A DNA stretch of 64,000 nucleotides from a virus: the IMG/VR virus record IMGVR_UViG_3300032313_000840, positions 1 to 64,000 of that record, one strand, 5' to 3'. Below the pieces are notes generated by a model. That model worked only from the letters and a program-made list of their open reading frames with translations, was not told the origin of the DNA and did not search any database. Below are positions 27,395-58,461 of the stretch, in pieces. Both the position numbers and the translations under genes were made by a program. How positions within the stretch are numbered: position 1 is the stretch's first letter; every line of letters begins with the position of its first letter.

Positions 27395-27712
27395 CAGGGT
27401 CGATTCAGATGCGGGAGACCAAACCCCACTGCTTCAAGCAGCCATTGCTAATTGGTTAGCAATTATTTTTTGCAACTGTTTATTTGCGACACTTGTTACC
27501 CGTGTCGGGTATCTCCTTCTTCATTACTTTGCGCCAATCTATTCCTTTCGACCCCGGTGACCCGAAGCCTAGGACTTCGGGAAATGCCCCGCTGCTACGA
27601 GGACTTGATTCGCCGTTTTCAGAGGATTGCAGATTCTCTGACTTAGGCTAATGGAGTCGGGGGGATTCGAACCCCCGTCTTGTACGCATTTCAATCCAAT
27701 ATCAACAATACC
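27395..27712 (-). ncRNA. ssrA: circularly permuted two-piece tmRNA (outer ends approximate), tag (A)ANQLAMAA
   Basis: GAC-GGGGG TTCGAAT CCCCC-CGACTCC-A (3' end 27652) precedes GGGGTCG (5' end 27555); G3-U70 pair; pk1; ATAATT-GCT resume site; tag 27460-27434. Confidence 0.88.
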
Positions 27713-44482: not shown

Positions 44483-45022
44483 TTATCTTTCCCAATAGAC
44501 TGTCTCGCCTCTTTCGTAAAATTTTAAATTATTCTTGGAATCTTCTTTCACGAAGTGCTTATCCTTCACCGTGAAGTGATTATTGGGAACAAGGGCAAAG
44601 TACCCACAGTCAAGCGTTATCAGACTCAAGGGCTTGTGTTCGGCTGGGTAGCGGGAATATCCGTCCTCCCAGTCGATTATTATTCCAGTATGTCTACCAT
44701 TCAACCCCGTATGAAAGACACTCACAGGTAGCCCCTCCAAGTAGGTTGTCATAAAAGTTTCAATATTATTGCCCATTCCACCCCAAGGTTGAATATTAGC
44801 ATTACTGTTATTATCAAAGACAGCAGTAGTGGACAAGGCACAAAGGGGAAGACCAGACCAATGTGCGCCAGATTCAAGAAGCACATGGCAGTATATTAAC
44901 TGACCCGGACGAGAATATACACCATGCCATATAGCAGGAGTATATCCATCAGGCATATTAGGTCCAAGAAAAGAATTTTTAACATTTACATATAAATGAT
45001 ATGGTAAAGTAGCATTTCTCAT
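44483..45022 (-). CDS. hypothetical protein
   Basis: CHVLLESGAHWSGLPL..QPW; probable start MRNATL. Confidence 0.65.
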   Translation of the reverse strand: MRNATLPYHLYVNVKNSFLGPNMPDGYTPAIWHGVYSRPGQLIYCHVLLESGAHWSGLPLCALSTTAVFDNNSNANIQPWGGMGNNIETFMTTYLEGLPVSVFHTGLNGRHTGIIIDWEDGYSRYPAEHKPLSLITLDCGYFALVPNNHFTVKDKHFVKEDSKNNLKFYERGETVYWER

Positions 45023-45070
45023 TATAAAGAAATATACAATAAAATACAAGAAAGTCAATGAACAAAGAGA

Positions 45071-45920
45071 GGGATATACAGGGGGGTAAAGGTGGGGGAG
45101 AGTGGGAGTGTGTGGGGTAAAGAAATTTTAAGAATATTTTGAGAAGATTGAGTTAGACCCCATCCCTCAAAGCCCCTTCGTTTGCCCTTTAACGCCCTTT
45201 AGAGCCCTTTTAAGCCCTTCAAGGCCCCTAGAGAGCCTTTAAAGCCCGTTCGCCTATAAGGCATTCTAGCCTGTCAAGCAATTCTTAGAGATATTATACA
45301 ATTTTTAAGAAATTTTAGACAATTATAGAAACCGTCCATACAATCCTAGATACCGTCCAGGCAATCCAGGCTCTGTCCAGCTCAATCCCGTCCAAGGGGA
45401 GAGCAATTATTATAATTTCCAGAATACCGTCCTATATCCCGTCCAGACCATGTCCTGGTGTGTGCCATACGGTATACCCCCAGGAACCCCTGATAGTAGC
45501 CAGGATTTTCAGAAATTTTTGAATCCTGTCCTGAATCCCGTCCGCTAATATTTTCAATTTTATTTGAAACTTCCAAGGGACGGATAACCATGGCACCGGC
45601 CAGACCGATAACCACGAGTCCGATAAGTATAGCACCGATAACGGTCAACGTCCGATAACCCCCTGCCTCACATCTGACGATTATAGGACACAGAGGCTGG
45701 GGGGTTATCGGTCGCATGAACAGTCTGATAACTATACACCAGATCTGGGGGTAGTCAAGTACTAGACCACAAGTCCGATAAGACGTCTGAGCTGGAGCTC
45801 CTGGATCCAGGAACCCGGTCCAGTGAATTAATTAAATTATTATTCTGTCCCAGAGACGCTCGCCGGCCTCTCCCAGCTCCAGCTGCACGCCGTCCCGTCC
45901 AGACTGCTAATATCGCCCCG
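45071..45920. repeat. non-coding repeat-rich region: G-tracts, phased GCCCTT repeats, oriented GTCC and CCGATAA repeats (candidate origin/terminus)
   Basis: Repeats read directly; no convincing ORF. Confidence 0.6.
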
Positions 45921-45924
45921 TCCA

Positions 45925-45985
45925 GACTACTATCAGGGGACGCGGAAATAAATCAAATTTCCTCGGAGGAAATTTGATAGTAGTC
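45925..45985. repeat. palindromic cassette-boundary element, copy 1
   Basis: GACTACTATCA..ATCAAATTTCCTC-G-GAGGAAATTTGAT-AGTAGTC. Confidence 0.8.
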
Positions 45986-46057
45986 CAGGTACACAGCCAC
46001 CCAGGACTGGCTCTCTCCTTCCAGTCCTGGGCGACCATGTATGAATTAAAAACGATC

Positions 46058-48235
46058 TTACCTGCCCTTGCGATCCCGGAACTTCATGCCCTCCGGGAAG
46101 CAGGGGAGTCCGTAGATCCCGGAGTCCATCTTGCGGATGGGCTGACCCGCCACGATGTCCACATACCGGGTGAGGAACACGCGGCTACCTGCCCGCTTGC
46201 CCATCGTCTTGATGAACTGGTTCTTCACCTTGGTGAAGTTACCTCCGGTGGCAATCGCCTCCTCGTCCTTGACGGGCTTCGGGGTCTGAATGAGGAAGTA
46301 CGAATCGTAGCCGGGGAAGGTATCTTCGTGCAGGACGAGGCATCCCTCCTTGAACGCTTCAGCCGCAGCCTTGTACCGCTCCGAATCTCCAACGGTCACA
46401 CCACCCTTGTAGTGATGGGAGATCGAATCGGCATTCTTCTGCTTCTCCTGTTCGCTCAAGCAGAACTGCTCAAAGCAGCGTTCCGTCAGGATACGAGTGG
46501 GCATCACATACATTCCAACGCATCGGGCGTTCAACTTGGTGCGGAGCGAATTGAGCATGGCGCAGATGACGCCATCGGGCAGATTCGTCCTGCCGTTCTT
46601 GTTGTCGATGACGGTGACCGTATCAAGGATCTCGTTCGTCACGGTGAGGGAAGTACCTTCGCCGTACCAGTAGACTCCATCCTCCTTGGAGGTGCTGATG
46701 TGGTTGGGGCAACCGTCCGTCACGACCATGATCGTGGGGATCTGAATGTTGTTCTCCTGCACCCATCCCGCCATAAACTGGGAAGTGAGGGCAATGCACT
46801 CCACCGTGGGCGTACCGTTCAGGGTGAGGTAACGGGAAGTGGGGCGGGTCTGCTGCACATAGGTTTCGTAGATGTACGCACACAGACGCTCACGCTTGGC
46901 CGCATCGTCCTTGGAGGAGGCAATGTTCAGCAGCCTAGCCGTCCCGATGTGCATACCCGTGGGGCAGTCACGATTCAAAGCCTGCGCGCACCATTCACGG
47001 TCGAACTCGTAGGAGAACTTGTCGGGGTTTTGCTTCCTCCATGCATCACACGCAGCCTGATACTCGGGATCAAGGTTGCCGTAGACATCGGTGTAGCCGA
47101 ACACCTCAAACGGGATCTTCGCCTTCTCGCAGAACCACACCAACTGGAGAACCTGAAGGTAGGCGTGGCCGATGGTCTGACCCATGCTGCCGCTGAAGTC
47201 AAGCATGAACACGATGCCGTGGTTCTTGCCGTCCTGCTTGACGATCTTCGACAGGAAGATATCGTCATGGGTGCGGTACTGGTGGAGGCGGTCAAGGTTC
47301 AGCATCCCGGTCTGCTTCGGACGCTCACGGCGGATCTCGTCCGCAGCCTTCTTGCGCTCAAACTGCGCGGCCATCTGACGGACGAACGCATCGGACTCAC
47401 GGACGAACTGGCGGTACTCCTCAAGGAGCAGCGGCCTGTTGCTGTTGCCCTCGTAGTCGTTGAGGATGGTTTCCGTGCTGATGATGTGCTTGGACAGATC
47501 CTTGACCCCGGTGATGGTGACCACCGCGTCCTGATACTGCGAACCGTCCTTGCGGCGGAAGTCACCGGGGACATCGTTCTTGTCGCCCATGATCTTGTCC
47601 TGCTCCTTCTCACCCTGCTTGCCACCCTTGGCAGCAGCAGCCTCCATCTCCTCGCGCATCTTCTTCATGGAGGGGTGGTCGTACAGGAACTTGGCGACCT
47701 CAAAGACCTGATCGAAATTGACCACACCGTCCACCATGTCCACGACCTCCTGCTCCGTCCCCTCAAAGGTCATGGGGATGAAGCCGGGGATGCCGAACTT
47801 GAAGTGAATGTTGAGACGATTGAGGAACCCGGCCTTCGCCAAGTCCATCTTCTTGAAGCCGAACAGGTCAAGGTCTGCGATCTCCTTGTAGCCAAGGAAG
47901 AAGTCACGGCGAGTGCCGGGGAACTTCTGCTTCATCAACTTCTCGATGCGGACATCTTCGATGATGTTGGCGATCCGCTGAAGGAGCATGGCGTTGTAGC
48001 CGTCCGCCTCCGCAGCCTTCAACAACTCCTCGCTGCGCTCGTAGGGAGTCCACATGGCGTGGCTGATCTCGTGGGCCACGAGCATGGTCTTGACGGTTTC
48101 GGTCACATCCCACATCGGCATGATGAGGTGACGCGACTTGACATCGAACGATGCGGTTTCAGCGTCCTTGGAGAAGGAGAACGAAATGTTCTCGGATGCG
48201 AGAGCCTTGGCAAAGATGGAGAGAGAGGTGTTCAT
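46058..48235 (-). CDS. VWA-domain/HExxH protein, CobT-like partner of the MoxR ATPase
   Basis: AHEISHA, NIIEDVRIE, MIDAS DFSGS, GTPT, VTDG; true start at leaderless ATG 48235. Confidence 0.85.
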   Translation of the reverse strand: MNTSLSIFAKALASENISFSFSKDAETASFDVKSRHLIMPMWDVTETVKTMLVAHEISHAMWTPYERSEELLKAAEADGYNAMLLQRIANIIEDVRIEKLMKQKFPGTRRDFFLGYKEIADLDLFGFKKMDLAKAGFLNRLNIHFKFGIPGFIPMTFEGTEQEVVDMVDGVVNFDQVFEVAKFLYDHPSMKKMREEMEAAAAKGGKQGEKEQDKIMGDKNDVPGDFRRKDGSQYQDAVVTITGVKDLSKHIISTETILNDYEGNSNRPLLLEEYRQFVRESDAFVRQMAAQFERKKAADEIRRERPKQTGMLNLDRLHQYRTHDDIFLSKIVKQDGKNHGIVFMLDFSGSMGQTIGHAYLQVLQLVWFCEKAKIPFEVFGYTDVYGNLDPEYQAACDAWRKQNPDKFSYEFDREWCAQALNRDCPTGMHIGTARLLNIASSKDDAAKRERLCAYIYETYVQQTRPTSRYLTLNGTPTVECIALTSQFMAGWVQENNIQIPTIMVVTDGCPNHISTSKEDGVYWYGEGTSLTVTNEILDTVTVIDNKNGRTNLPDGVICAMLNSLRTKLNARCVGMYVMPTRILTERCFEQFCLSEQEKQKNADSISHHYKGGVTVGDSERYKAAAEAFKEGCLVLHEDTFPGYDSYFLIQTPKPVKDEEAIATGGNFTKVKNQFIKTMGKRAGSRVFLTRYVDIVAGQPIRKMDSGIYGLPCFPEGMKFRDRKGR

Positions 48236-48291
48236 GCGCACATTGTAACCGATGCGGGGGAAGAAGTCAACCCACAAACAAAGTTTATTTT

Positions 48292-48372
48292 GCGTCCCAT
48301 AACGTCCTGTCTGGCTACTATCAGGGCGTCCAATAAAATCAGAAAGCCCAGACGGGCTTTCTGATAGTAGCT
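48292..48372. repeat. palindromic cassette-boundary element, copy 2
   Basis: GCGTCCCATAACGTCC..GGCTACTATCAG..ATCAGAAAGCCC-AGAC-GGGCTTTCTGAT-AGTAGC. Confidence 0.85.
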
Positions 48373-48421
48373 CACAGATGCTGCCTCTCCCCCCGCAAGG
48401 GGGGGAGAGGCATGAACAGCA

Positions 48422-48643
48422 TCAGACGGTGACGGGAGCAATCAGAGGCGTCAGATCGTAGACGCCCTTGCTGTCCGTCTTGCAGTCCTTCAGCACCCAA
48501 GTCGGGATGCCCTTCATGTTGATGGACTGTGCGACTGCGAGGAGGTCGGCCTTGCTGAAGTTGTTGGTGTTACCGCCGTGAACGGTATCCGCGAACTGCT
48601 TGGCTGCGGCGACGAAACGATTGCGCTTGTTGAGGTATGGCAT
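48422..48643 (-). CDS. hypothetical early protein
   Basis: ORF downstream of the CobS-like gene, followed by a GC hairpin; IPTWV motif echoes the LPAWL of the CobS N-terminus. Confidence 0.6.
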   Translation of the reverse strand: MPYLNKRNRFVAAAKQFADTVHGGNTNNFSKADLLAVAQSINMKGIPTWVLKDCKTDSKGVYDLTPLIAPVTV

Positions 48644-48665
48644 TTTCTTTTTCTTTCTTTCTTGG

Positions 48666-50015
48666 TTAGGCGTTCATGGCGTACTGGGTGTCGGTGTCGG
48701 GGTTGGACAACTTATCCAACTGTGCTTTCAATTCTGCGATCTTCTTCTGCTCTGCGGTCAGAGAGTTCACCGGGTTGCTCACCGGGGCATCCTTCATCCC
48801 CTCCGGGACAGGGAGGATCGTGGGGTCGATCTTCGTGTAGAGGTTGAAGAACGCCTCCTTCGTGGACGCATCGAACCGCGTCAGCGTCAACTTGATGGCC
48901 TTCTCCTTGTCGCCAAAGATGGCGAACGCCTTGCACACTTCCTCCAAGCGGCGGGTGGTGATGATGTCATCCAGTCCGCCCTCCTTGAAGCCCATGCGGA
49001 TCGTTTCCGCCCACTTCGTGAGGTACTGGGCGAACTCCTTGTCCTCCTTGCCGTATGCCTTCATCTTGCGGATGATGATACGCGCTTCGATGGTGCGATC
49101 CGCGTAGTCCTGCTCAAACCAGTAGGAGAAGCGGTCAAGGAACGCCTCGTTCATGCAGCGCGTACCCACGAACCGATCAGACTCGCCCTTGCCCTTGGTG
49201 TTGGCAGTCGCCACCACATTGAAGCCGGAAGCGGGCTTGATGAACATACCGATCTTCTTGATGTAGATGCCCTTGCCCTCAAGCACGGGCTGAAGGCACA
49301 TCATGCGCTCCGTCCCGAGGTCGATCTCGTCCAACAGGAGGATAGAGCCGCGCTGCATGGCCTGAACCACGCCACCGAACACGAACTTCGTTTCGCCGTT
49401 GACGAGGCGGAAGCCACCGATGAGGTCATCCTCGTCCGTTTCGGCGGTGATGTTGACGCGAATGCACTCGCGGCCCGTGGAGGCGCAAATCTGCTCCACC
49501 ATCGTGGTCTTGCCGTTGCCGGACATACCCGTGATGTAGACGGGAGCGAACTGCTTGGAGGCGAGGATGGTGGAGATGTCATCGTGGTGACCCCACGGAA
49601 CGAAAGTCTCGTTCTTGACGGGGACGAGCGAAACATCGGAGGACGGCATGACGAGGTTGTAGGTGTTGCTGTTCATGTTGCTGATTGTATCACAAGTTTC
49701 GGAGGAAGTCAAGGTTTCGGAAGAAGATTCGGAAATATTTTCTTCCACGGTATCGGACTCTGCGGGATTGTATTCAAGCACGACCATCTCCGGGATGATG
49801 TACTTGCCACGACCTGCACGGCGGTTCTTGGGCTGAACCAGCCAAGCCGGGAGGACTCTGTAGGAATGCTCGCTACTAAGGGCATAGGACTGGCCAAGTG
49901 CCTCAAGGCATTGCTCACGGGTGTAGACTGCTTCCCCGATGGTCTGCGGAGTGCCGAACAGGATCTGAAGGGCATTGAGGAAGTTACGCTTGCGAATGTC
50001 GATGTTGCTGTTCAT
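48666..50015 (-). CDS. cobS: MoxR/CobS-like AAA+ ATPase
   Basis: Walker A GMSGNGKT, ETDEDDLIGG, Walker B LLLDE, ATANTKG, EAFLDRF, TTRRL. Confidence 0.92.
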   Translation of the reverse strand: MNSNIDIRKRNFLNALQILFGTPQTIGEAVYTREQCLEALGQSYALSSEHSYRVLPAWLVQPKNRRAGRGKYIIPEMVVLEYNPAESDTVEENISESSSETLTSSETCDTISNMNSNTYNLVMPSSDVSLVPVKNETFVPWGHHDDISTILASKQFAPVYITGMSGNGKTTMVEQICASTGRECIRVNITAETDEDDLIGGFRLVNGETKFVFGGVVQAMQRGSILLLDEIDLGTERMMCLQPVLEGKGIYIKKIGMFIKPASGFNVVATANTKGKGESDRFVGTRCMNEAFLDRFSYWFEQDYADRTIEARIIIRKMKAYGKEDKEFAQYLTKWAETIRMGFKEGGLDDIITTRRLEEVCKAFAIFGDKEKAIKLTLTRFDASTKEAFFNLYTKIDPTILPVPEGMKDAPVSNPVNSLTAEQKKIAELKAQLDKLSNPDTDTQYAMNA

Positions 50016-50076
50016 GCCGCAATCTTACCACACAATCTTTCTAAAGTCAAGTTTGGTCTGAAGATTTTTTATCCAG

Positions 50077-50168
50077 GTCCGATAACCGGTCCGATAACGT
50101 CCACTACTATCATAATAATATAAACAGCCTCAGAAATTCGCTTAAAGGGCGAATTTCTGATAGTAGCT
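50077..50168. repeat. palindromic cassette-boundary element, copy 3
   Basis: GTCCGATAAC x2, CTACTATCA..TCAGAAATTCGC-loop-GCGAATTTCTGA-TAGTAGC. Confidence 0.8.
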
Positions 50169-50241
50169 CAAAGAAACAACCCCCGCTTGCGCGGGGGTTG
50201 GTATGAAAGGGAGTTTATCTCCCCGGCATCTCACCGGGTAC

Positions 50242-50487
50242 TTACACTCCCGTATTGTAGTAGTTCTTCTCGGTCTTGGACTCGCTGACCCTGCAAATCT
50301 TTTCAAGGGCCACGATGCGCTGCCACAACTTCTCTTGCTCAAGGTAGAGATCCTTGACCATCTCGTCTTGATGACGAACGATGCTGTTCAACTTCTCGTT
50401 CAGTCGAACGCGGAAGTAGGCGATGGCGAAGTAGGCGGCACCTGCGAGGGTGATGATGGTGACGAGCGTGTTGAGATCAATGTTCAT
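50242..50487 (-). CDS. small single-TM coiled-coil early protein
   Basis: TTGACA..TATAAT-6nt-ATG; N-terminal TM. Confidence 0.65.
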   Translation of the reverse strand: MNIDLNTLVTIITLAGAAYFAIAYFRVRLNEKLNSIVRHQDEMVKDLYLEQEKLWQRIVALEKICRVSESKTEKNYYNTGV

Positions 50488-50589
50488 GTCTCTATTATAC
50501 CTCTTGGTTTGGGGTTGTCAAGTCTCGGACGGAAAAAAAGTTTCTTTTAGTTACAACATCTGACCTAAATATAAGGAGGTGTTATAACT

Positions 50590-50967
50590 ATGAGACCAAA
50601 GAAAAATTTTTGGAAATGTCAGGACTGTGGAGTGGAACTAAAACGGAAACAAGTTCGATGCCGTGGATGCCATGATATCAGGCATCCTGATATGACCATT
50701 GAAGAATCGGCTTATGGTGACAAAGGTTGGCCAAACACTTATGCACGTATCAGAGATAAGGCCAAGTATGTCGTTAAGCATCTTGAATGGACCTGCTGTC
50801 GCAATTGTGGGTATGACAAACATTTTGAAATTTGTCATATCAAAGCCATAAAAGATTTTTCAAAAGACACTTTATTAAGTGTAGTGAACGATCCTTCTAA
50901 CCTTGTTCCTCTATGCCCAAATTGCCATTGGGAGTTTGATAGAGGAATCTTAAAATTGGACGGGTGA
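50590..50967 (+). CDS. HNH endonuclease
   Basis: CRNCG..EICHIK..NLVPLCPNCH; TAAATA plus AAGGAGG. Confidence 0.88.
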   Translation: MRPKKNFWKCQDCGVELKRKQVRCRGCHDIRHPDMTIEESAYGDKGWPNTYARIRDKAKYVVKHLEWTCCRNCGYDKHFEICHIKAIKDFSKDTLLSVVNDPSNLVPLCPNCHWEFDRGILKLDG

Positions 50968-51038
50968 GATTCGAACTCACGATGCCGAAGCGGGCAATTA
51001 TAAGTCGCCTGCTGCTCTCCACCGCAGCGCGCCGTCCA
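50956..51038 (-). tRNA. atypical tRNA with UAU anticodon (Ile, AUA-reading)
   Basis: Acceptor TGGACGG/CCGTCCA; arm GGCGA-CT TAT AA-TTGCC; extended variable loop; GTGAG TTCGAAT CTCAC. Confidence 0.75.
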
Positions 51039-51039
51039 G

Positions 51040-51118
51040 TGGTGGAGCCTTCATACGGATGCTCCGGTGTCCGTGCAACCGTAGGTTGCCTCTATACGGT
51101 TGTTGTAGTTACCGCCAA
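51040..51118 (-). ncRNA. candidate structured RNA ending in a pseudoknot plus ACCA
   Basis: CAACCGTA/TACGGTTG stem; ACGGA/TCCGT stem whose loop GGAGC can pair with GCTCC-ACCA. Confidence 0.4.
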
Positions 51119-51177
51119 ACTCATTAATAATATATCTGATTGAGGTACATTGTACCACCTCTTTCTTGTTTGTCAAG

Positions 51178-51251
51178 CGTTCCCGGCAGGATTCGAACCT
51201 GCAACCTACAGATTAGAAATCTGTGGCACTATCCAGTTGTGCTACGGGAAC
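51178..51251 (-). tRNA. tRNA-Arg(UCU)
   Basis: Anticodon arm ACAGA-TT TCT AA-TCTGT. Confidence 0.94.
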
Positions 51252-51378
51252 AAATCGGAAGGGACTACTTCAACGGTACTAGGGGAAGAATGCATTTTTC
51301 TTTTAATACATTCCGCAAACCCACCGACCGTCTTCATACCCTTCCGGGTTGGGTGCCTTGAAGAAGGACACCCGGTAA

Positions 51379-51463
51379 TAGCGCGGGCGGGATTCGAACC
51401 CGCAATGTTTCTTATGTATCAGATTTTGAGTCTGACGTGTTTCGCCAGTTTCACCACCGCGCC
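51379..51463 (-). tRNA. tRNA-Leu(CAA)
   Basis: Anticodon arm TCAGA-CT CAA AA-TCTGA; long variable arm. Confidence 0.93.
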
Positions 51464-51477
51464 ATGTAGGTATTGTA

Positions 51478-51948
51478 TCATACCTTTGTTGTCTTGTCAA
51501 GTCTCTTTTTGTTTCTGAAGTTATCGGTTGTTGAGTGACAGTTTGGGCAGAGAAGTTGAAGATTGGTTAGTTCGTTGTTCACTCTGTTGCCATCTACATG
51601 GTGAACTTCCAAAGCAATCGGAGACTGTAACCAAGTATCATTGTTGCAGGACTCACATCTATGTCCTCTCAATTTTACTAAATTGATTTTAAGTCTGTGA
51701 TTGTTTGTATACTGAGACCAATCTTTTTGCTGTGCGTCTTTATTCCATGCTTGGCCCTTCCAATGGCTAGTATCGATGGAATATTTTTGCAAATACTTTT
51801 TAGCAGTTTGGTAATTGCTTCCAGCCCTGCTGTCGTTCAATCCCAACTCTCTCAAGAATCCTGCAAGAGATGTAACTTTTGCAGCAATCTCGGCCAGTTC
51901 TTCTTTGGTCTTGCTCCCGATGGTGTTGTATTTCTTTCTCATAGGCAT
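51478..51948 (-). CDS. HNH endonuclease
   Basis: CESC..LEVHHVDGNRVNNELTNLQLLCPNCH. Confidence 0.92.
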   Translation of the reverse strand: MPMRKKYNTIGSKTKEELAEIAAKVTSLAGFLRELGLNDSRAGSNYQTAKKYLQKYSIDTSHWKGQAWNKDAQQKDWSQYTNNHRLKINLVKLRGHRCESCNNDTWLQSPIALEVHHVDGNRVNNELTNLQLLCPNCHSTTDNFRNKKRLDKTTKV

Positions 51949-51982
51949 AGGCTCCTATACCTATTTAGAAACCTATGCCATT

Positions 51983-52279
51983 CTAAAACAGATCGGGGGT
52001 GCTGTCAAGATTTTTCTTTTTGTTTTCCGTCAGCCCAAACTTCTCATGCAGTTCCTCGTAGAACTCTGCGTTGGGTCGAACCACCTGCTCGTGGAGTCGG
52101 TTGCCGTTGATGGCAATCTGCGCTCCCTCTACTGCATCGTAGTAGGCGGTGATCAGATCCTGTGGAGGGTTGGCATTGCCTTCAAGCCAATGTTCCATGA
52201 TCAGGTCTGCGACAATTGCAACCCTGTCGTACATCTGCAGGGCGAAGATTTTTTCATCGAAGTCTAGTGGGGTGTTCAT
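51983..52279 (-). CDS. hypothetical protein
   Basis: GGAG SD; start MNTPL. Confidence 0.55.
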   Translation of the reverse strand: MNTPLDFDEKIFALQMYDRVAIVADLIMEHWLEGNANPPQDLITAYYDAVEGAQIAINGNRLHEQVVRPNAEFYEELHEKFGLTENKKKNLDSTPDLF

Positions 52280-52294
52280 GTTGTTTTCTCCGAA

Positions 52295-52367
52295 TGGGTC
52301 CGGTGGGACTTGAACCCACAACCAATAGATTAAAAGTCTACTGCGCTACCAATTGCGCTACGAACCC
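52295..52367 (-). tRNA. tRNA-Lys(UUU)
   Basis: Anticodon arm GTAGA-CT TTT AA-TCTAT; TTGACA..TACAAT promoter upstream. Confidence 0.94.
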
Positions 52368-52405
52368 GAATGCCCATTGTAACCGATGGGCTGCGGTTTG
52401 TCAAG

Positions 52406-52762
52406 TCAGGATTCGAAGTCCTCGTCCGCATCCGGGTCGAACGGGTAGTACTCCCGCTCCATCTGACCTGCGTACTCCTCGTAGGTCATCTCCATGACCT
52501 GTGCGATCATCATCATGAAGGCGGCGAAACCCAAGTGAATCTCGGGCACCCTTCCGTCTGCCTTCTCGGTCAACATCCAGTTGGTGACGTACTGGATCCC
52601 GTTGGCGACGATCATGCGCTGACCCTCGTCCTTGTAGAAGTTCGGGTGTTCACCTGCGAACTGCATCAGGGTCTTGACGACATCCAACGGGTCGGGCTTG
52701 AAAGCCCCCATGTCGATGTTCTTGCGGGTGAAGAAACCATCGTACTTGTTCTGCGGTGACAT
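52406..52762 (-). CDS. hypothetical early protein
   Basis: AAGGAG SD; acidic C-terminus. Confidence 0.65.
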   Translation of the reverse strand: MSPQNKYDGFFTRKNIDMGAFKPDPLDVVKTLMQFAGEHPNFYKDEGQRMIVANGIQYVTNWMLTEKADGRVPEIHLGFAAFMMMIAQVMEMTYEEYAGQMEREYYPFDPDADEDFES

Positions 52763-52980
52763 TAGCGAATCTCCTTGAGGGTGGTGTGCAGGGACATGAC
52801 GAACTCGTATTCTTCTTCGGTGACCATATCAGGGCCGCTGATCTGCGTCAGGATGAAGTAGCCTTGAGCGAGGCGGGCAATGTCCTCATCGTACTCGGCC
52901 CAATCGGGGTGTTCGGTGACGAAGTTTGCGATCTCGTTGATGAGGTCGGAGATGTCGGTGGTGGTGGTGGGCTTTCTCAT
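52762..52980 (-). CDS. hypothetical acidic early protein
   Basis: Leaderless after TTGACA..TACAAT. Confidence 0.65.
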   Translation of the reverse strand: MRKPTTTTDISDLINEIANFVTEHPDWAEYDEDIARLAQGYFILTQISGPDMVTEEEYEFVMSLHTTLKEIR

Positions 52981-53294
52981 GTCGGTATTGTAACAGATTC
53001 GGGGACTGGTGTCAAGGTCACGCTGTGAAAATGTTTTACTTGTTTTGCGTACCGGATGAAACTGTGCATCTTGTCATCCGGCAGTTCGACCGACATGTTT
53101 ATTGTGTAGGTGTCGATGCCGAAAACAAAACTTTGATCTACGTGCGTGTTCATTCGAACATCGAACATCCCGGTCGGATCTGCGAGGGCCAGGCATTGGA
53201 ACACACTCTTGACCATCTTCTGCAACCTGCGCTTATGCCATCCCATGGAATGGGTCAGCGGGGAATGCATCTCAATGGTGACGGTGGCGATCAT
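52977..53294 (-). CDS. hypothetical protein
   Basis: GGAG SD; overlaps the upstream stop. Confidence 0.5.
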   Translation of the reverse strand: MIATVTIEMHSPLTHSMGWHKRRLQKMVKSVFQCLALADPTGMFDVRMNTHVDQSFVFGIDTYTINMSVELPDDKMHSFIRYAKQVKHFHSVTLTPVPESVTIPT

Positions 53295-53527
53295 TCGAAG
53301 TCTCCGTCATCGATGAAGTCGGGAACATCCCGGTCAAGGTCATCGTCGCCGTAGCAGTAGTCATCGTCAGAGTCGTACAGCCCGACCATGCGCTTGGCTT
53401 CTTCTTCGGTGTAGCCATCTTCCACCAGTTCAGCAACGGCTTCTTCCTCGGTAACATCGTCAAGGCAGGAGTCGTAGGCGTGATCGTCGTTGTCGTAGTC
53501 GCTGTCAATGTCGTAGGAGTTGTTCAT
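53291..53527 (-). CDS. extremely acidic early protein
   Basis: Leaderless ATG 53527; D/E-dominated 78 aa. Confidence 0.65.
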   Translation of the reverse strand: MNNSYDIDSDYDNDDHAYDSCLDDVTEEEAVAELVEDGYTEEEAKRMVGLYDSDDDYCYGDDDLDRDVPDFIDDGDFE

Positions 53528-53583
53528 GCCGGCATGGTAACACAGGATCCAAGGGAAGTCAAGAGAAAGAGAAAATATATTTG

Positions 53584-53665
53584 GCGTCCCATAACGTCCT
53601 GTCCGGGCTACTATCAGGGGGCGCATAAAAATCAGATTCCCTCAGAGGGAATCTGATAGTAGCCC
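53584..53665. repeat. palindromic cassette-boundary element, copy 4
   Basis: GCGTCCCATAACGTCC..GGGCTACTATCAG..ATCAGATTCCCTC-A-GAGGGAATCTGAT-AGTAGCCC. Confidence 0.85.
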
Positions 53666-53804
53666 AAAGAACATGACCCACCCTAAAGAGGATGGGTCAG
53701 AGGTTTTGGAGGCTCGGTTACCTCCATGCCTTCTCCCGTTGCAACCGGAAGAATTGGTTTCAGGGCCCAGACCTAGGCCAACGCTCAAGCCCATCCCGTA
53801 TTTT

Positions 53805-54104
53805 TTAGTTCATGTTCAGCATCTTCTCCGTCTTGCGAGAGTATGCTCCGATCCCGTCGATCTTATCCTCACCGATCAGGATCCAGTCCTTCTTGATGAT
53901 GTCGAAGGCGCAGATGTAGCCTTCGATGGTGTGACGAGCACCAGTCGGCAGGTTGCCTCCCAGTTGCTTGATGAACACGGGGTCAGTCGTGATCTCACGC
54001 GAGGTTGGGGTGCCGTCCTTCTTCCTGAACGACACAAAGAGCGTATCGTTGTTGGAGAGAGCAACGCGAAGAATCGTGGACATCGGAAGTTCGGTGGTGT
54101 TCAT
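53805..54104 (-). CDS. WYL_2/DUF2693-like SH3 beta-barrel protein
   Basis: VSFRKKDGTPTSREITT..AFDIIKKDW. Confidence 0.65.
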   Translation of the reverse strand: MNTTELPMSTILRVALSNNDTLFVSFRKKDGTPTSREITTDPVFIKQLGGNLPTGARHTIEGYICAFDIIKKDWILIGEDKIDGIGAYSRKTEKMLNMN

Positions 54105-54210
54105 GTGGGTATTGTACCTTGTGTGAGTGCGAAAGTCAAGTGGCGTGTAGATTTCTTTTAAACTTCCTCCCGGCCCCTTGCGGGGCCGGGAGGCTACATG
54201 CACCACCATG

Positions 54211-54600
54211 TTAGATCGGGAGGTTGACATTGCCGAACTGGGCGAAGTGACGGTTGAAGCATTCCGTCACGATGTTCTCAAGCGGCATGATCCTGACGCC
54301 AGTCTCCTTGAAGGAGGCGTCCGCTGCCTGTGCGTAGTAGGACACCGATCCGTCACGGATGTTGTCCACGAACTCCTGCCAGTCCAAACCCAGTTCCGTC
54401 ACGATCATGTAGACGAGGGTCTTTTCGGCATCGGTGAACCAGTCGAACGGCAGGGACACGGTGATCTCGCACAGGGCGAGGGCGGCGTTGATCTCGGCGG
54501 GTTCGTTCTTGAACTCCGGCGTCTTGTTGGCGGTCAGGACGAGGGAAACAACGAGGTCATCGATCTTGGCGAGGCGGACGGGCTTGGTGGTGTTCTTCAT
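54211..54600 (-). CDS. hypothetical early protein
   Basis: AAGGA SD; followed by a GC hairpin. Confidence 0.65.
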   Translation of the reverse strand: MKNTTKPVRLAKIDDLVVSLVLTANKTPEFKNEPAEINAALALCEITVSLPFDWFTDAEKTLVYMIVTELGLDWQEFVDNIRDGSVSYYAQAADASFKETGVRIMPLENIVTECFNRHFAQFGNVNLPI

Positions 54601-54618
54601 GGTGGTGTTCCTTGTGGG

Positions 54619-54867
54619 TTAGGCGGCGAGAATCTTCTTGATGCGTTCGTCAGCACGGCGGGACATATCGGCGTCCAGTTCACGGGCCTTCTTCGCCTCC
54701 TCCTTGATGCGGCACAGGAGATACTGCAGTCCTTGGAGGTCGTTTTCTTCCATGTAGTCTGCGATGCCCTCCAAGTAGAGGAGCGAGGAGGCGAGGTAAC
54801 CGTAGGCGTAGGCGTGGTCGTGGGTGACGGAGGCGGGGATCTTGACGGTGGTGGTGCTGTTCTTCAT
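54619..54867 (-). CDS. hypothetical early protein
   Basis: Leaderless after TACAAT; HAYAYGYLAS motif. Confidence 0.65.
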   Translation of the reverse strand: MKNSTTTVKIPASVTHDHAYAYGYLASSLLYLEGIADYMEENDLQGLQYLLCRIKEEAKKARELDADMSRRADERIKKILAA

Positions 54868-54948
54868 GTCGGTATTGTAACAGGTCGGGGTGCGAAAGTA
54901 AAGGGGGACAGAAAGAATATTTCGCTTTCTGTCCCCCCATGCAGGGGT

Positions 54949-55212
54949 TCAGGTGAGCGGGATTCCGTACTTCGCCTCAAGGGCTTCCTTCATGCCGGCG
55001 AGAACCTTCTCGCGGTTGCCCTTCAGACCGTACTCCTTCTTGGCGAGAGCGTAGCAGGAGACGCCACGGGTCAGGCGCATCGGGGTGCCACGGGCTGCGG
55101 TCTTGATTTCGAACTTCAGACCGTTGTAGATCATCAGTTCCCGGTAGGCGCAGATCTGTTCGGGGGTGTCGAGCATGATGCCGCCGTCGTTGTTGTTGGT
55201 GGTGCTGTTCAT
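54949..55212 (-). CDS. hypothetical early protein
   Basis: Leaderless ATG 55212; LKFEIK..MRLTRG..KKEYGLKGNREKV. Confidence 0.7.
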   Translation of the reverse strand: MNSTTNNNDGGIMLDTPEQICAYRELMIYNGLKFEIKTAARGTPMRLTRGVSCYALAKKEYGLKGNREKVLAGMKEALEAKYGIPLT

Positions 55213-55268
55213 GCGTACATTGTAACACACCTCGGTTGAAATTGCAAACGCAAAGAAAGAAATATTTG

Positions 55269-55359
55269 GCGTCCTATAACGTCCACTGGGCGGCGGGCTA
55301 CTATCACGCGCCGTCCAATAAAAAATCAGGAAGTCCCTAGGGACTTCCTGATAGTAGCT
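55269..55359. repeat. palindromic cassette-boundary element, copy 5
   Basis: GCGTCCTATAACGTCC..GGCTACTATCA..perfect palindrome ATCAGGAAGTCCCTAGGGACTTCCTGAT-AGTAGC. Confidence 0.85.
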
Positions 55360-55499
55360 CAGCCCTCGCTGGCCACTTCCCTTTTCCCCTCCCTCCGCGC
55401 CTTCCGGGGGTCCCGGCTCTTCTTGCCCCAGGTTTTGGAGCGAAGCCGGATTCCCTCCCGGAAGGCGTCATGGACGAATTTGGCTGGGCGGTGGTTCAT
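55359..55499 (-). CDS. small basic protein
   Basis: MNHRPAKFVHDAFREGIRLRSKTWGKKS...; overlaps the upstream stop (ATGA). Confidence 0.45.
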   Translation of the reverse strand: MNHRPAKFVHDAFREGIRLRSKTWGKKSRDPRKARREGKREVASEG

Positions 55500-56062
55500 T
55501 CGGCCTTCCCCCGAACGATGATCCACAGCAGGGCCTGCAGCGTGGCGGGGGCCATGCACACGGCACCCGTTCCGGCGATGGTGCGGATCGCGTCCGCGAT
55601 GGCCCGGTACTCGGTCGCGTTGGGCGCATCCTTGCCCAGTCCCGCAGCGCGGCACATCCACACATCCACGACCACCGCGTCACGGTCTCCGGCGATGGCA
55701 CGTGCGAACGCGTTGGTCTTCGGGCCGCGCAGGCCGTTGAAGCCCTGCCGGACGCATCGGTCGGCAGCGTCCACGTGGGAGCGGAGACCCTTCGGCGTGA
55801 TGCCCTGCGCGTACTGGTATGCCTTAGCCTTGTTGTGCGCCCACGTCACGCGGGGCGAGAATGCGGACACAACGGACGCGGACACTTCCATGCTCCACTC
55901 GGGGCGCAGTACGCGCAGCGACTCCGCGAAGTCTCCGGCCTCAACGTACCACTTCTGCGCGGCAGCGTAGTCGAAGAGGGTAGCCGATGCGAGGTGGCTG
56001 ATGAAGGATTCGATGGCGCGGGTGCGGACGGTTTCGTAACGGTTGGTGTGGGTGGTGCTCAT
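55496..56062 (-). CDS. HhH-GPD DNA-glycosylase-like protein (DUF7178-like)
   Basis: WY..SAFSPRVTW..N..GPKTNAF..VVVDVWM..Y..QALLW; leaderless ATG 56062. Confidence 0.7.
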   Translation of the reverse strand: MSTTHTNRYETVRTRAIESFISHLASATLFDYAAAQKWYVEAGDFAESLRVLRPEWSMEVSASVVSAFSPRVTWAHNKAKAYQYAQGITPKGLRSHVDAADRCVRQGFNGLRGPKTNAFARAIAGDRDAVVVDVWMCRAAGLGKDAPNATEYRAIADAIRTIAGTGAVCMAPATLQALLWIIVRGKAE

Positions 56063-56128
56063 GCGTACATTGTACCATGCCATGCCGGCTATGTCAATGG
56101 GTGGGGGCGGAATATTATAAATTCTTTC

Positions 56129-56223
56129 GCGTCCCATAACGCATCCAGGTGGGCCGGCTACTATCAGGCTCACCGCGTCCAGTCCCATAACATCAGCGGC
56201 CTCTGAGGCCGCTGATAGTAGCC
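56129..56223. repeat. palindromic cassette-boundary element, copy 6
   Basis: GCGTCCCATAACG..GGCTACTATCAG..ATCAGCGGCCTC-T-GAGGCCGCTGAT-AGTAGCC. Confidence 0.85.
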
Positions 56224-56314
56224 CCGCCCCATAAACAACCTAGCCCCGAACGAATCGGGGCAGGGACGAATCCTTTTCGGTTGGTACGAGCACCACCTCG
56301 TTAGTTTATTGAAA

Positions 56315-56398
56315 GCGTAGTGGAGGACTTGCACCTCTGTTGCTCTGTATCAGATTGCTTTGATCAAAGCAACCCTAGCAGCCTGACGCTGGCTACGC
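56315..56398 (-). ncRNA. tRNA-like RNA lacking a normal anticodon loop
   Basis: GCGTAG/CTACGC acceptor-like stem; GAGG TGCAAGT CCTC T-arm; long palindromic arm. Confidence 0.45.
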
Positions 56399-56407
56399 GA
56401 AGTTTGG

Positions 56408-56638
56408 TTATTTGCGAGTGTTGCCCCGGTGGCCGTAGGCCACAAACAGAATCCCATCCGGGCTTCCTGCGAACAGCATCGTGAAGAAGCAGAGGAAGCA
56501 GGTGGAGGGCAGGAGCGCCCACCACAGCCATGCGTGGGGAGCGGGTTGGGTCAGCGCCCAGACCATCACGCCCGAAACGAATGAGCCGAGGAGGATGACG
56601 AGGGCAGAGAAGAGACGATTGCGAATGGTGGTGTTCAT
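56408..56638 (-). CDS. two-TM early membrane protein
   Basis: Leaderless; two hydrophobic helices. Confidence 0.65.
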   Translation of the reverse strand: MNTTIRNRLFSALVILLGSFVSGVMVWALTQPAPHAWLWWALLPSTCFLCFFTMLFAGSPDGILFVAYGHRGNTRK

Positions 56639-56689
56639 GTCGGTATTGTATCAGTTCGTGGTGCGTATGTCAAGTGCGCCGAAAGAAAT

Positions 56690-57037
56690 TTAGTGATTGT
56701 TCTCCGGGCAGTCCGCCGGGATCGCCACTTCGATAACGTCCTCAATAACGAAGGAGCGGATGCCGCCACGAGTGTAGTCGTAGTAGACGGTGACCGTGGC
56801 GTCCCAGTCGTTATCGCTCTTGGCGATGGCGATCTGCTCCATGCTATCACCGAACGCGGCGACAAGCGTGGGGTTCCGCGTGGCGAGCCGGCATTCGATC
56901 TGCCCGTTAGCCTTCTTGTAGGTGACCTGCACCCACCCGGAGGCGAGGAGGGACATCATGCGATCATGACGCTCGGAGAGAGTGCCCGTGAAGAAGGGGA
57001 GGACGATGCGCGAACGATTGGTGCGAGTGGTGCTCAT
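56690..57037 (-). CDS. WYL_2/DUF2693-like SH3 beta-barrel protein
   Basis: VTYKKANGQIECRLATRNP..VYYDYTRGGIRSF. Confidence 0.75.
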   Translation of the reverse strand: MSTTRTNRSRIVLPFFTGTLSERHDRMMSLLASGWVQVTYKKANGQIECRLATRNPTLVAAFGDSMEQIAIAKSDNDWDATVTVYYDYTRGGIRSFVIEDVIEVAIPADCPENNH

Positions 57038-57059
57038 GGCACCATTGTACCATAGACTG

Positions 57060-57159
57060 CTGCTGATGTCAACCCTTCGGAAAGAAATTTCTCAAAGTTT
57101 GTTCTAGGACTCAGGAGCACCGCTACAGAAATTTCTTTCCGAAGGGTTGACATCAGCAG
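57060..57159. promoter_or_regulatory. perfect 33-bp inverted repeat carrying divergent sigma70 promoters
   Basis: 57060-57092 is the exact reverse complement of 57127-57159 (AGAAATTTCTTTCCGAAGGGTTGACATCAGCAG). Confidence 0.9.
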
Positions 57160-57181
57160 AGAAGTATGCTACCATACTCAC

Positions 57182-57454
57182 ATGAGCACCACCACCACCG
57201 ACCCGAACGAATTCGAACACTTCCCCTGTGACTGCCACCGCCCCGAGCACGCCTACACGGATTCGTTGTGCCCGATGTGCGAGGAGAACGCGGAGCGGGA
57301 GCGCGAGGCCAAGCGCGAGGCCCGCAAGGCGCAGGATGACGCGGAGCGCGATGCCGACAACGCGGCATTCGGTGCGGCCTGCGCGAGCATGAGCCCCGAA
57401 GACTGGGACGCGGACAACGACTGGCTAGCCAGCGCAGGATGGGGGGAAATGTAA
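57182..57454 (+). CDS. acidic early protein with Cys motif
   Basis: Leaderless; CDC..CPMC; C-terminal DNDWLASAGWG. Confidence 0.65.
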   Translation: MSTTTTDPNEFEHFPCDCHRPEHAYTDSLCPMCEENAEREREAKREARKAQDDAERDADNAAFGAACASMSPEDWDADNDWLASAGWGEM

Positions 57455-57586
57455 CCCCTATGGGAAGCCCGTGACCTGCAATGCCTAGCCAACCTGCCGG
57501 CCCCCTCAGAGGGGGCCGGCAGTGTTATTATAGAAATCTCTACCATGCAGGTTGCAATGCGCGGCCTGGTGTGGTATCATACCTGC

Positions 57587-57829
57587 ATGAGCACCACTCA
57601 GAACAACACGGCTGAAACCTCTCGCCCCTGCTGCTGCGTTTGCGGCGCTGATCACGTGGACGATAACGTTCGCGCTACCGAGTATGGCGCCATGTGCGTC
57701 ATGTGCGTTGAGGATGTTCGCGCAGACATGTGCGCGGACGCGCATGAGCGCGACATGGGCGACTGCTACTGGGACCGCGTTCGTGAGTGTGACTCGGATG
57801 CCTACGCGGACTCAATAGACCGGGACTAA
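57587..57829 (+). CDS. Cys-rich acidic early protein
   Basis: Leaderless ATG 57587; CCVC..CVMC. Confidence 0.6.
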   Translation: MSTTQNNTAETSRPCCCVCGADHVDDNVRATEYGAMCVMCVEDVRADMCADAHERDMGDCYWDRVRECDSDAYADSIDRD

Positions 57830-57904
57830 CCCTCCCGCAAACAAATCAAATAAATTTCCACCGACCCCCTTGCAACCGAGGGGGCGGTGTGTTACAATAC
57901 GCGC

Positions 57905-58072
57905 ATGGAAAGCACCACCCACATCGAAGAAACCACCCGCCCCGTTGAGGTTCGCCTCGCCCAGCGCCCGAAGAATCTCGGGCCGGATGCTGCCTGGATC
58001 ACCGAGGAAGGCGTTGAGTACGCGGAGGCGCCAGACGAGGACACCTACTGGGACTGGTACTGGGGCCAGTAA
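57905..58072 (+). CDS. small acidic early protein
   Basis: Leaderless ATG 57905; hairpin terminator follows. Confidence 0.6.
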   Translation: MESTTHIEETTRPVEVRLAQRPKNLGPDAAWITEEGVEYAEAPDEDTYWDWYWGQ

Positions 58073-58461
58073 CCCCCCAGCCCACCAGATGCCCCCCGCG
58101 AAGCGGGGGGCATCTTTATTATTAGAGGTAGGGGGGAGGGGGGTATAGGGTAGGGGGGATGTGTCCGAGTAGTAATTTGGGTCCCATACACGGGGGGGTT
58201 ATCGGACGGGCTAGCCCCACCGACCCCTTCTAATTTTCTCTAATATTCTCAAAAAAACTTTTTGGCCACCAAATATCTCAAAAACCTTTTTGACCCCCTA
58301 TTGTCAAATACCTCACATATAATAAAAACTTTTTGGCCCCCCTAAGCCTCTCAAAGTCCATTTATAAAACGACTCCCTTTTTCAAAATACATGGAATGCC
58401 ATAAAAAAAATTTGGGCCCCCGAAGGAGCCCAAAAGTTTATTCAAAAATTTTTAAGTTATT

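Follow-up and report, generated by a model that had tools for sequence, protein, structure and literature searches.

Among described systems, the closest to the repeated module discussed here are the promoter-early stem-loops (PeSLs) of T4-type phages. Two accounts describe PeSLs as a stem-loop that acts as a terminator, followed by an AT-rich region and a sigma70-like promoter, and link them to insertions and deletions (indels) (Arbiol et al. 2010, PMC2839356; Comeau et al. 2014, PMC4122927). Here, we describe six copies of a palindrome-containing module in the first 64 kb (the window) of IMG/VR record IMGVR_UViG_3300032313_000840, an 81,931-base viral contig that is linear according to IMG/VR and 44% complete according to CheckV. 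A reading made from the sequence only had taken the copies for attC- or PeSL-like elements and had proposed a structure-recognized system for shuffling gene cassettes or controlling early transcription or DNA entry. PeSLs are the closest known kind: the module would work in a similar way, but it is a distinct variant that fails one defining feature, the Shine-Dalgarno sequence. We consider it reasonably probable that the module is a PeSL-type terminator/insulator plus promoter cassette. Its apparent additions to the PeSL plan are leaderless starts, a phased upstream box, and a nested invariant inverted repeat.

The six copies, and a solitary half-site beyond the first of them, are present where the sequence-only reading had placed them, as judged by pattern, coordinates, and a covariance model. 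The strict pattern, GCTACTATCA-N28-58-TGATAGTAGC, in which nine positions are fixed and the end position is limited to G/A and C/T, has four matches in the window and none in 100 shuffled sequences. At up to one mismatch, GCTACTATCA occurs 15 times in the 81,931-base contig, 13 of these between 45491 and 56213. A covariance model (R1) based on 46 distinct family members detects the six elements on the whole contig, all on the minus strand (45.5 to 72.8 bits), and nothing else at E≤1 except their plus-strand mirror images, which score only 21 to 27 bits. We conclude from the strict pattern, the clustering, and the model that the array is not due to chance and, from the difference in score between the gene strand and the opposite strand, that the element is polar. 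A construction of this kind had been proposed as a check on the array, and it also recovers five to seven elements in each of four related contigs. The half-site has a counterpart in one relative (G089), where a single one lies 388 nt from the first element, compared to 435 nt in the window.

The elements sit between minus-strand open reading frames, among co-oriented early genes, in an island with a G+C content of 52 to 63% (46 to 58 kb, except for a tRNA stretch at 50 to 52 kb), compared to 30 to 45% over most of the contig. The island has a minus-strand arm, with genes read from about 57.0 kb to 46.06 kb, and a short plus-strand arm that starts at 57.18 kb. Its small proteins include those of Cys-rich open reading frames at 57182-57454 and 57589-57829. 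On the coding strand, all copies share one layout and one orientation relative to the genes: an upstream stop codon, usually a GC-rich hairpin, GCUACUAUCA, the perfect hairpin, a tail, UGAUAGUAGC, the box or boxes, an A/T-rich stretch, the promoter, and the ATG. The hairpin reads GCUACU-AUCA(G/A), a variable stem-loop-stem, and (C/U)UGAU; its base (AUCAG/CUGAU) is conserved, and its interior varies freely. The last four bases of the 5' 10-mer double as the hairpin base, and UGAU thus occurs twice on the 3' side. The tail is T-rich (60 to 75% T at positions 1 to 5) and often runs on as GGAC(G). What had been described as an ATAA(A) motif is indeed present, but it is the complement of this T-rich tract 3' of the hairpin on the coding strand. 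Inner arms that vary yet stay paired, as first reported, are found throughout: all six stems differ, and each is a perfect palindrome with arms of 12 to 14 bp. The apex is 0 to 1 nt in four copies (1, 4, 5, and 6) and 4 and 7 nt in copies 2 and 3. Separate GC hairpins adjoin copies 1, 2, 3, 4, and 6, again in agreement with the earlier description. The two 10-mers are spaced 47 to 56 bp apart, center to center, in the window and 43 to 68 bp apart in the family overall, with no helical phase.

One or two TTATNGGAC boxes lie 3' of UGAUAGUAGC, centered near -63 or -73. The full GCGTCC(C/T)ATAACG box was correctly assigned to copies 2, 4, 5, and 6; copy 3 has two GTCCGATAAC boxes, and copy 1 is without an exact box. 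There are 13 TTATNGGAC boxes on the minus strand of the contig and 2 on the plus strand, and 12 of the 13 fall at 45.6 to 56.2 kb, always with elements or in the noncoding stretch after copy 1. Relative to the predicted start, the 13-nt box occupies positions -69 to -57 in copies 2, 4, and 5 and positions -79 to -67 in copy 6; both placements face the same side of the helix, as the site of an upstream activator would. A sigma70-like minus-strand promoter just downstream of each of copies 2 to 6 had also been noted, and we find the same. The promoters, predicted by consensus and preceded by A/T-rich stretches upstream of the -35, have the form TTGACN-17-TACAAT-N6-ATG after copies 2, 3, 4, and 6 and an extended -10 form after copy 5. 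A consensus scan found 30 promoter-like sites, compared to 8.6 expected. Because the ATG lies only 6 nt past the -10, leaving no space for a leader or Shine-Dalgarno sequence, the island genes are predicted to be leaderless. Element and box together precede 5 of the approximately 16 island promoters, and the island promoters without an element carry no box. At least 14 island promoters (46000 to 58000) share TTGACN-17-TACAAT, 6 nt, and ATG. These promoter-start blocks of about 50 nt are themselves a repeat family (D1 to D3), and several synteny breakpoints lie at them.

Table 1. Positions of the module copies and of associated features in the window; promoters are predicted by consensus
Feature	Position (strand)	Description	R1 score (bits)
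Copy 1	45926..45984 (-)	Outer repeats 45926-45935 and 45975-45984; A/T variant at outermost position	58.2
Copy 1 palindrome	45952-45978	13-bp arms, 1-nt apex; T-rich tail on coding strand	
Copy 1 setting		After 725-aa gene stop and GC hairpin 45990-46041; no promoter downstream	
Copy 2	48292..48371 (-)	Box 48292-48304; outer repeats 48314-48323 and 48362-48371	71.3
Copy 2 palindrome	48338-48365	12-bp arms, 4-nt loop; coding-strand tail TTTATTGGACGCCC	
Copy 3	50077..50167 (-)	Two GTCCGATAAC boxes at 50077 and 50089; outer repeats 50103-50112 and 50158-50167	45.5
Copy 3 palindrome	50130-50160	12-bp arms, 7-nt loop, weak T tail	
Copy 4	53584..53663 (-)	Box 53584-53596; outer repeats 53607-53616 and 53654-53663	62.4
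Copy 4 palindrome	53631-53657	13-bp arms, 1-nt apex	
Copy 5	55269..55358 (-)	Box 55269-55281; outer repeats 55297-55306 and 55349-55358	72.8
Copy 5 palindrome	55325-55352	14-bp arms, no apex	
Copy 6	56129..56222 (-)	Box 56129-56141, second box in tail at 56182; outer repeats 56157-56166 and 56213-56222	59.9
Copy 6 palindrome	56192-56216	12-bp arms, 1-nt apex; no T tract after hairpin	
Solitary half-site	45491..45500 (-)	TGATAGTAGC on plus strand, GCTACTATCA on coding strand; inside box-rich noncoding stretch	
Promoter of 725-aa gene (after copy 2)	48236..48270 (-)	TTGACT-17-TACAAT, 6 nt, ATG 48235	
Promoter after copy 3	50022-50050 (-)	ATG 50015	
Promoter after copy 4	53534-53562 (-)	ATG 53527	
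Promoter after copy 5	55219-55248 (-)	ATG 55212	
Promoter after copy 6	56069-56097 (-)	ATG 56062	
GC-rich hairpin	53674..53699 (-)	T-rich tail; between upstream stop codon and copy 4	
Analogous separate GC hairpins	45990-46041, ~48384-48410, 50177-50200, 56243-56261	Resemble ordinary terminators, tolerate G-U pairs	
Noncoding stretch	45060..45920 (-)	Downstream of copy 1, island edge, 860 nt; includes half-site	

The same element recurs in related phages. In IMG/VR, 18 contigs carry a total of 29 loci with the strict pattern, and 17 of these loci have the layout seen in this phage; metagenomes add at least 119 stretches. DNA near-identical or related to that of the window occurs in lake and freshwater metagenomes of 10 studies. 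After removal of unrelated matches, IMG/VR and the lake metagenomes together yielded 115 distinct elements with 87 distinct hairpin arms. Membership in this set required perfect arms of at least 9 pairs, and all 115 have 10 to 16 consecutive perfect pairs. In each of the four related contigs (91 to 126 kb), the elements are clustered in a stretch of about 10 kb, all on one strand and in unchanged order, and the spacings mirror those of the window for the first two intervals. Six positions are kept across relatives with flanks 66 to 98% identical, and the 10-mer does not vary even where flank identity drops to 66 to 80%. An unrelated repeat, at metagenome loci such as L072, L078, L084, and L090 (contigs JGI24700J35501 and Ga0099364), shares the 10-nt inverted repeat but encloses another interior. 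Most of its 24 occurrences lie about 25 to 80 nt from the end of a contig, as would be expected of a repeat at which assemblies break.

Covariation within the stem is strong. In a MAFFT alignment of 46 distinct elements (A1), in which ten stem pairs were scored (460 cells), 97.6% of the cells are standard pairs, compared to 27 to 56% in slid controls, and both sides have changed in 137 cells, compared to 33.5 in shuffles (none of 500 reached 137). Only 1 of the 460 cells is a G-U pair. Orthologues differ by true compensatory steps, as at copy 2 (GAAAGCCC/GGGCUUUC in the window, GAAAGUCC/GGACUUUC in the relative L027). At the copy 4 position the whole stem has been replaced, its arms being GATTCCCTC or GCGGCCCCC depending on the relative, with flanks 77 to 92% identical, and copies 5 and 6 of L027 share an identical stem at two positions of one genome. 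In L027, the counterparts at the copy 4, 5, and 6 positions are "simple" palindromes (GCTACTATCAG-stem-CTGATAGTTGTC, in mirror form at copy 4) that have no T tail and are complementary at 4 of the 6 outermost positions. Covariation had also been proposed for the outer repeat, and this stands for one end position only (among the 115 elements, the outermost pair is G..C in 86, G..T in 18, A..C in 6, and A..T in 5); the other nine positions are fixed by the search pattern. A pattern anchored on the hairpin base and tail instead of the 10-mers returned six known elements, all with canonical 10-mers, and five unrelated coding matches, too few elements for covariation of the outer repeat to be assessed in this way.

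The comparison with PeSLs was made with their published text descriptions, not base by base. According to these, the PeSL, like the module described here, is a repeated intergenic unit among small, variable early genes of a T4-type phage, its stem-loop immediately precedes an A/T-rich stretch and a sigma70-type -35/N17/-10 promoter (predicted here), its stem sequence varies and its flanks are conserved, and some indels between close relatives end in it. The T4 affiliation of the present phage is indicated by a T4-type DNA polymerase on the contig (phrog_262 match, 4.7e-261), which is 41% identical to gp43 of Synechococcus myoviruses (cyanomyoviruses). According to the same descriptions, however, a PeSL has a Shine-Dalgarno sequence and a start codon at its 3' end, whereas the phage module has no such end and its ATG lies 6 nt past the -10. 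In the phage, moreover, the palindrome is strict and lies within an invariant inverted repeat of 10 nt, the last 4 nt of which are duplicated; the module has an extra TTATNGGAC box at -63/-73; and modules number only five to seven per genome, at fixed orthologous positions in one island arm. No such element is mentioned in the listed titles and abstracts on leaderless and early promoters of T4-like phages and on freshwater phages and cyanophages. In the searchable literature, the 10-mers as text gave, among the matches listed, only unrelated primer or small interfering RNA uses.

Other known elements resemble the module less. Intrinsic (Rho-independent) terminators share with it a hairpin after the stop codon on the coding strand and, in most copies, a T-rich tract; they differ from the phage hairpin with its A/U-rich base, invariant 10-mers, near absence of G-U pairs, and palindromic apex, and 29 of the 115 phage elements have fewer than 4 T in 8 nt. 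Repetitive extragenic palindromic (REP) sequences and bacterial interspersed mosaic elements likewise place a short conserved head beside a palindrome, in intergenic positions after genes, where a role as a 3' hairpin is plausible. However, they number hundreds per chromosome compared to five to seven copies here, their head is on the other side of the hairpin, and the Y1 transposase of REP-associated systems was not found with the phage elements (five of five records, 44 to 70% complete). Integron attC sites typically have unpaired or bulged bases that mark the recombined strand. The phage elements share with them a variable sequence with conserved pairing and a location between gene cassettes, but their hairpins are perfect palindromes (97.6% paired cells in A1) without unpaired bases of the attC type. 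Furthermore, each phage cassette has its own promoter and the elements do not move with the cassettes, whereas attC cassettes are promoterless. Judged by the features compared, the module is neither an attC site nor a REP element, nor is it a miniature inverted-repeat transposable element (MITE); the last was dropped by inspection, as there is no target duplication and the interiors differ. Also dropped by inspection were a promoter inside the 10-mer (with TACTAT as the -10), because its distance to the box ranges from 11 to 17; a terminator acting in both directions, as the other strand has no T tract; and NtcA, Fur, IHF, or DnaA-box identity, as the consensus sequences are unlike.

Whether the elements shuffle cassettes can be judged from their flanks. 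When the 400-nt flanks of the 111 elements outside the window were compared to the island by BLAST, 70 elements had both flanks at the same window copy and 1 had flanks from two copies; 31 matched on one side only (29 of these with at least 80 nt available on both sides) and 9 matched nowhere. Both flanks were assigned for 71 elements, and 70 of these retain the two flanks of their position. The elements are therefore fixed positional orthologues, even though the sequence on one side can often no longer be recognized. The points at which BLAST matches to IMG/VR loci (identity of at least 84%) end form 16 breakpoint clusters at 45.9 to 56.4 kb. Three are within 10 nt of an element core (53617, 53664, and 55265; p ~0.06 versus uniform placement), and the other 13 are at promoters, gene ends, or tRNA borders (50522, 51978, 52285, 53802, 54609, 55490-55500, and 56306) or inside genes. 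The contig joints 53665->53802, 53617->53805, and 56299->56407 agree with this comparison. Joints 53599->55291 and 55286->53605, which could have been taken for a cassette deletion and its reciprocal, were not counted: both lie between repeated boxes, and the first has a short side of 20 letters. Recombination between neighboring PeSLs gives rise to mini-circles, and 55286->53605, the only back-joint seen here, is not reliable.

Profile searches gave no match to the tyrosine recombinase family PF00589 in five of five records (44 to 70% complete), among them the record that contains the window (44% complete), in line with the earlier remark that no integrase is visible; a control profile matched 14 of 14 genomes. 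The Y1 transposase family PF01797 likewise had no match at E≤0.01 in these records, whose incompleteness means that absence of a recombinase is not proven. Taken together, the flanks, the breakpoints, and the recombinase searches disfavor an attC-like system and lead us to regard the conserved modules as probable passive homology patches, as proposed for PeSLs. The element does not look like a mobile integron-type site. Thus, of the label attC/PeSL-like, the second half fits (T4-type polymerase; stem-loop, A/T stretch, and sigma70-type promoter; some indels ending at the module) and the first is not supported. Structure-recognized shuffling of cassettes is disfavored by the perfect hairpins, the unmatched recombinase profiles in the incomplete records, the cassettes' own promoters, and the fixed positions. 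A change of gene content exactly at the element was the test suggested for shuffling, and only 3 of the 16 breakpoint clusters lie there. What we retain of the sequence-only reading is the control of early transcription; nothing found here speaks for or against DNA entry.

Our preferred reading is that of a terminator or insulator joined to a promoter. The hairpin and its T tail would end or attenuate transcription of the upstream unit and so insulate the next, leaderless one; such tight punctuation would make sense because read-through RNA would carry the next AUG internally, without a ribosome-binding site. The box, and probably also the invariant 10-mers, would be recognition sites of a protein that marks a subclass of early promoters (5 of approximately 16 in the island). 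The 10-mers could also pair with each other around the hairpin, as a second tier of stem, in single-stranded DNA or read-through RNA. The repeated conserved flanks probably serve as passive homology patches, with whole hairpins exchanged between copies and some indels ending there, and the elements themselves stay at their six fixed positions in the minus-strand arm of the early island. On the minus strand, five of the six window hairpins are classed as terminator-like by a consensus scan. In the 115 elements, the 8 nt that follow the stem include 4 or more T in 86 and 5 or more in 65.

Several observations weigh against this reading, and termination may not be the core function. There are fewer than 5 T in 50 of the 115 elements and fewer than 4 T in 29, so that about a quarter are without a T tract; copy 6 has none, nor do the simple L027 orthologues of copies 4, 5, and 6 have any T tail, and the stem base beside the tail is A/U-rich, which is atypical of strong terminators. 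Termination could instead take place at the T-tailed GC hairpins just upstream. In the plus-strand arm, units end with a plain GC hairpin and T tail (57494-57530 and 58087-58125), with no 10-mers or boxes, and hence termination as such needs neither. RNA-library contigs (X15) cover parts of the island, but as assembled contigs they are blind to ends, strand, and level. The hairpins also resemble DNA palindromes: G-U pairs make up 1 of 460 cells compared to 9% in the neighboring GC hairpins (by a different method), a contrast that is partly circular because the element hairpins were chosen for perfect arms, 1/460 being the noncircular figure. In 52 of the 115 elements the palindrome extends to within 0 to 1 nt of its center, and in five of the nine arm groups with more than one loop, the loop flips to its exact reverse complement (e.g., AGAC/GTCT and CAGA/TCTG). 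Finally, a punctuation role does not explain what reads the invariant 10-mer, whose constancy amid flanks of 66 to 80% identity points to sequence-specific recognition. The variable and unphased spacing of the 10-mers argues against one protein bridging both on duplex DNA and favors pairing in RNA or single-stranded DNA.

In a rival reading, the 10-mers and the GGAC-type boxes would be duplex sites of a regulator that switches a temporal subclass of early promoters on or off, and the palindrome between the 10-mers would be no more than the terminator of the preceding unit. Boxes occur only with elements, upstream of 5 of approximately 16 island promoters, and at a fixed position relative to the start (-63 or one helical turn further). 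The simple forms keep the distance from the 3' 10-mer to the box though the tail is absent, and a dense same-orientation array of related boxes lies with the lone half-site at 45.06 to 45.92 kb. Such an operator or enhancer module is nonetheless unlikely in our estimate: the 10-mer spacing shows no helical phase, an incidental hairpin would leave unexplained why its base and the 5' 10-mer overlap in all copies, and no candidate regulator was found among the 10 island proteins scanned, 8 of which were without a Pfam family. Highly improbable, we think, is RNA processing, in which the 10-mers would pair in read-through RNA to form a two-tier stem with an internal loop on the 3' side, and a double-strand-specific RNase would cut it, leaving the upstream mRNA with a protective 3' hairpin. 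RNase III cuts the early processing sites of T7, which the modules may resemble. When each copy was folded with 10-nt flanks (Z-scores, -2.2 to -4.4), the nested outer and inner stem was the minimum-energy fold in three of six copies (2, 4, and 6) and the centroid in copy 5, and the outermost G..T, a G-U on the coding strand, is three times commoner than A..C (18 versus 6). However, nine of the ten outer positions are fixed by the search pattern, so that pairing there is not assessable by covariation; the simple forms pair at only 4 of the 6 outermost positions; and a cut here would give the leaderless downstream genes no gain.

The fixed sequence of the base, the extra inverted 10-mer, the loop flips, and the swapping of whole stems between copies are the grounds for a reading at the level of DNA, in which the strict palindromes would be hairpin or cruciform signals for a dedicated phage or host protein and would govern recombination, replication start, or promoter-class switching; we consider this quite unlikely. 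Very unlikely, in our view, is a site of combined structure and sequence with attC- or REP-like logic, where the palindrome would extrude as a hairpin or cruciform, its base and the 10-mers would be read by a phage or host protein (recombinase, nuclease, or replication factor), and cassette exchange or recombination-dependent replication would start. The strictly Watson-Crick stems, the palindromic apices, and the loop flips described above all fit such a site, as do the replacement of whole stems at the orthologous copy 4 position, the stem shared by copies 5 and 6 of L027, the three indel edges inside or at the edge of copies 4 and 5, and the invariance of the 10-mer amid diverged flanks. 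Against it stand the unmatched PF00589 and PF01797 profiles, the positional orthology (70 of 71), the 13 of 16 breakpoint clusters away from elements, and a strict polarity relative to transcription that is unexpected for a symmetric DNA site. Templated correction of quasi-palindromes during replication is a mechanism described for T4, and it could yield loop flips and perfect arms without any function. Even so, these features leave the hairpin or cruciform reading a small probability.

The carrier of the modules is an uncultured freshwater T4-like phage. Besides the polymerase, its contig encodes a DnaB-like helicase and a ribonucleotide reductase, as well as nine tRNAs and a permuted transfer-messenger RNA (tmRNA). 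The latter, a two-piece, phage-borne form at 27434-27712 (Rfam, 75.2 bits), has the ARAGORN-predicted tag peptide ANQLAMAA. At gathering score, Rfam recognized only the tRNAs and the permuted tmRNA, and the elements were unmatched even at E≤5. A megablast search with 45000-57000 had no matches in 50,697 phage records and therefore provided no usable isolate relative. The most conserved units of the island (46058-50015) are a 725-aa protein, 27 to 31% identical to a cyanomyovirus protein annotated "peptidase" and with matches in 463 phage records, and an adjoining AAA_5 (MoxR/CobS-like) ATPase. At the island center, 57020-57199 contains a 73-nt inverted repeat (81% complementary, with 34 nt between the arms) with two divergent leaderless promoters. 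At the island edge, the noncoding stretch 45060-45920 contains at least 15 same-orientation GGAC-type boxes (TTATCGGAC, YTGGACGG) and, at about 45160-45260, about eight AAAGGGC-like repeats spaced 10 to 11 nt apart, followed by an AT-rich stretch. It looks like an iteron array, and may be an origin or a regulatory hub.

The strict pattern has nine loci in 596 billion bases of prokaryote genomes, compared to approximately 17 expected by chance, and none has the phage layout. Three of the nine are in metagenome-assembled genomes (MAGs) of Planctomycetota. One Gemmataceae MAG (G002, loci L039 to L048) has a REP-like intergenic family in which the phage's 11-mer TGATAGTAGCC abuts a GC hairpin (CGCCAC..GTGGCGG), often in inverted pairs; a longer 14-mer has 7 exact copies, and 31 at up to one mismatch. 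In 80 further genomes of that phylum, the 11-mer shows no enrichment (58 matches, compared to 48 for the control), and matches in G025, G067, G078, and G082 are in unrelated contexts. This family may be a coincidence or a host clue, and we have not used it as evidence of host or function.

We conclude that the finding is a well-documented regulatory repeat and not a new mobile system, and that its role is most likely ordinary transcriptional punctuation; the data do not bear out the shuffling, attC-like reading, which had made the element seem exceptional. Cassettes of the PeSL type have been proposed as linkers in the modular evolution of T4-like phages, and what recognizes them, if anything does, is little understood. 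This uncultured freshwater clade offers a sharper form, in which an invariant 10-mer occurs twice, inverted, around a freely evolving perfect palindrome. With a box in helical phase with a leaderless promoter and six kept positions, it is a defined, testable cis-element, which could help to find the factor that marks a subclass of early promoters and to part terminator function from palindrome dynamics at the level of DNA. If true, the DNA-hairpin reading would add a new kind of structure-recognized site in lytic, T4-like phages.

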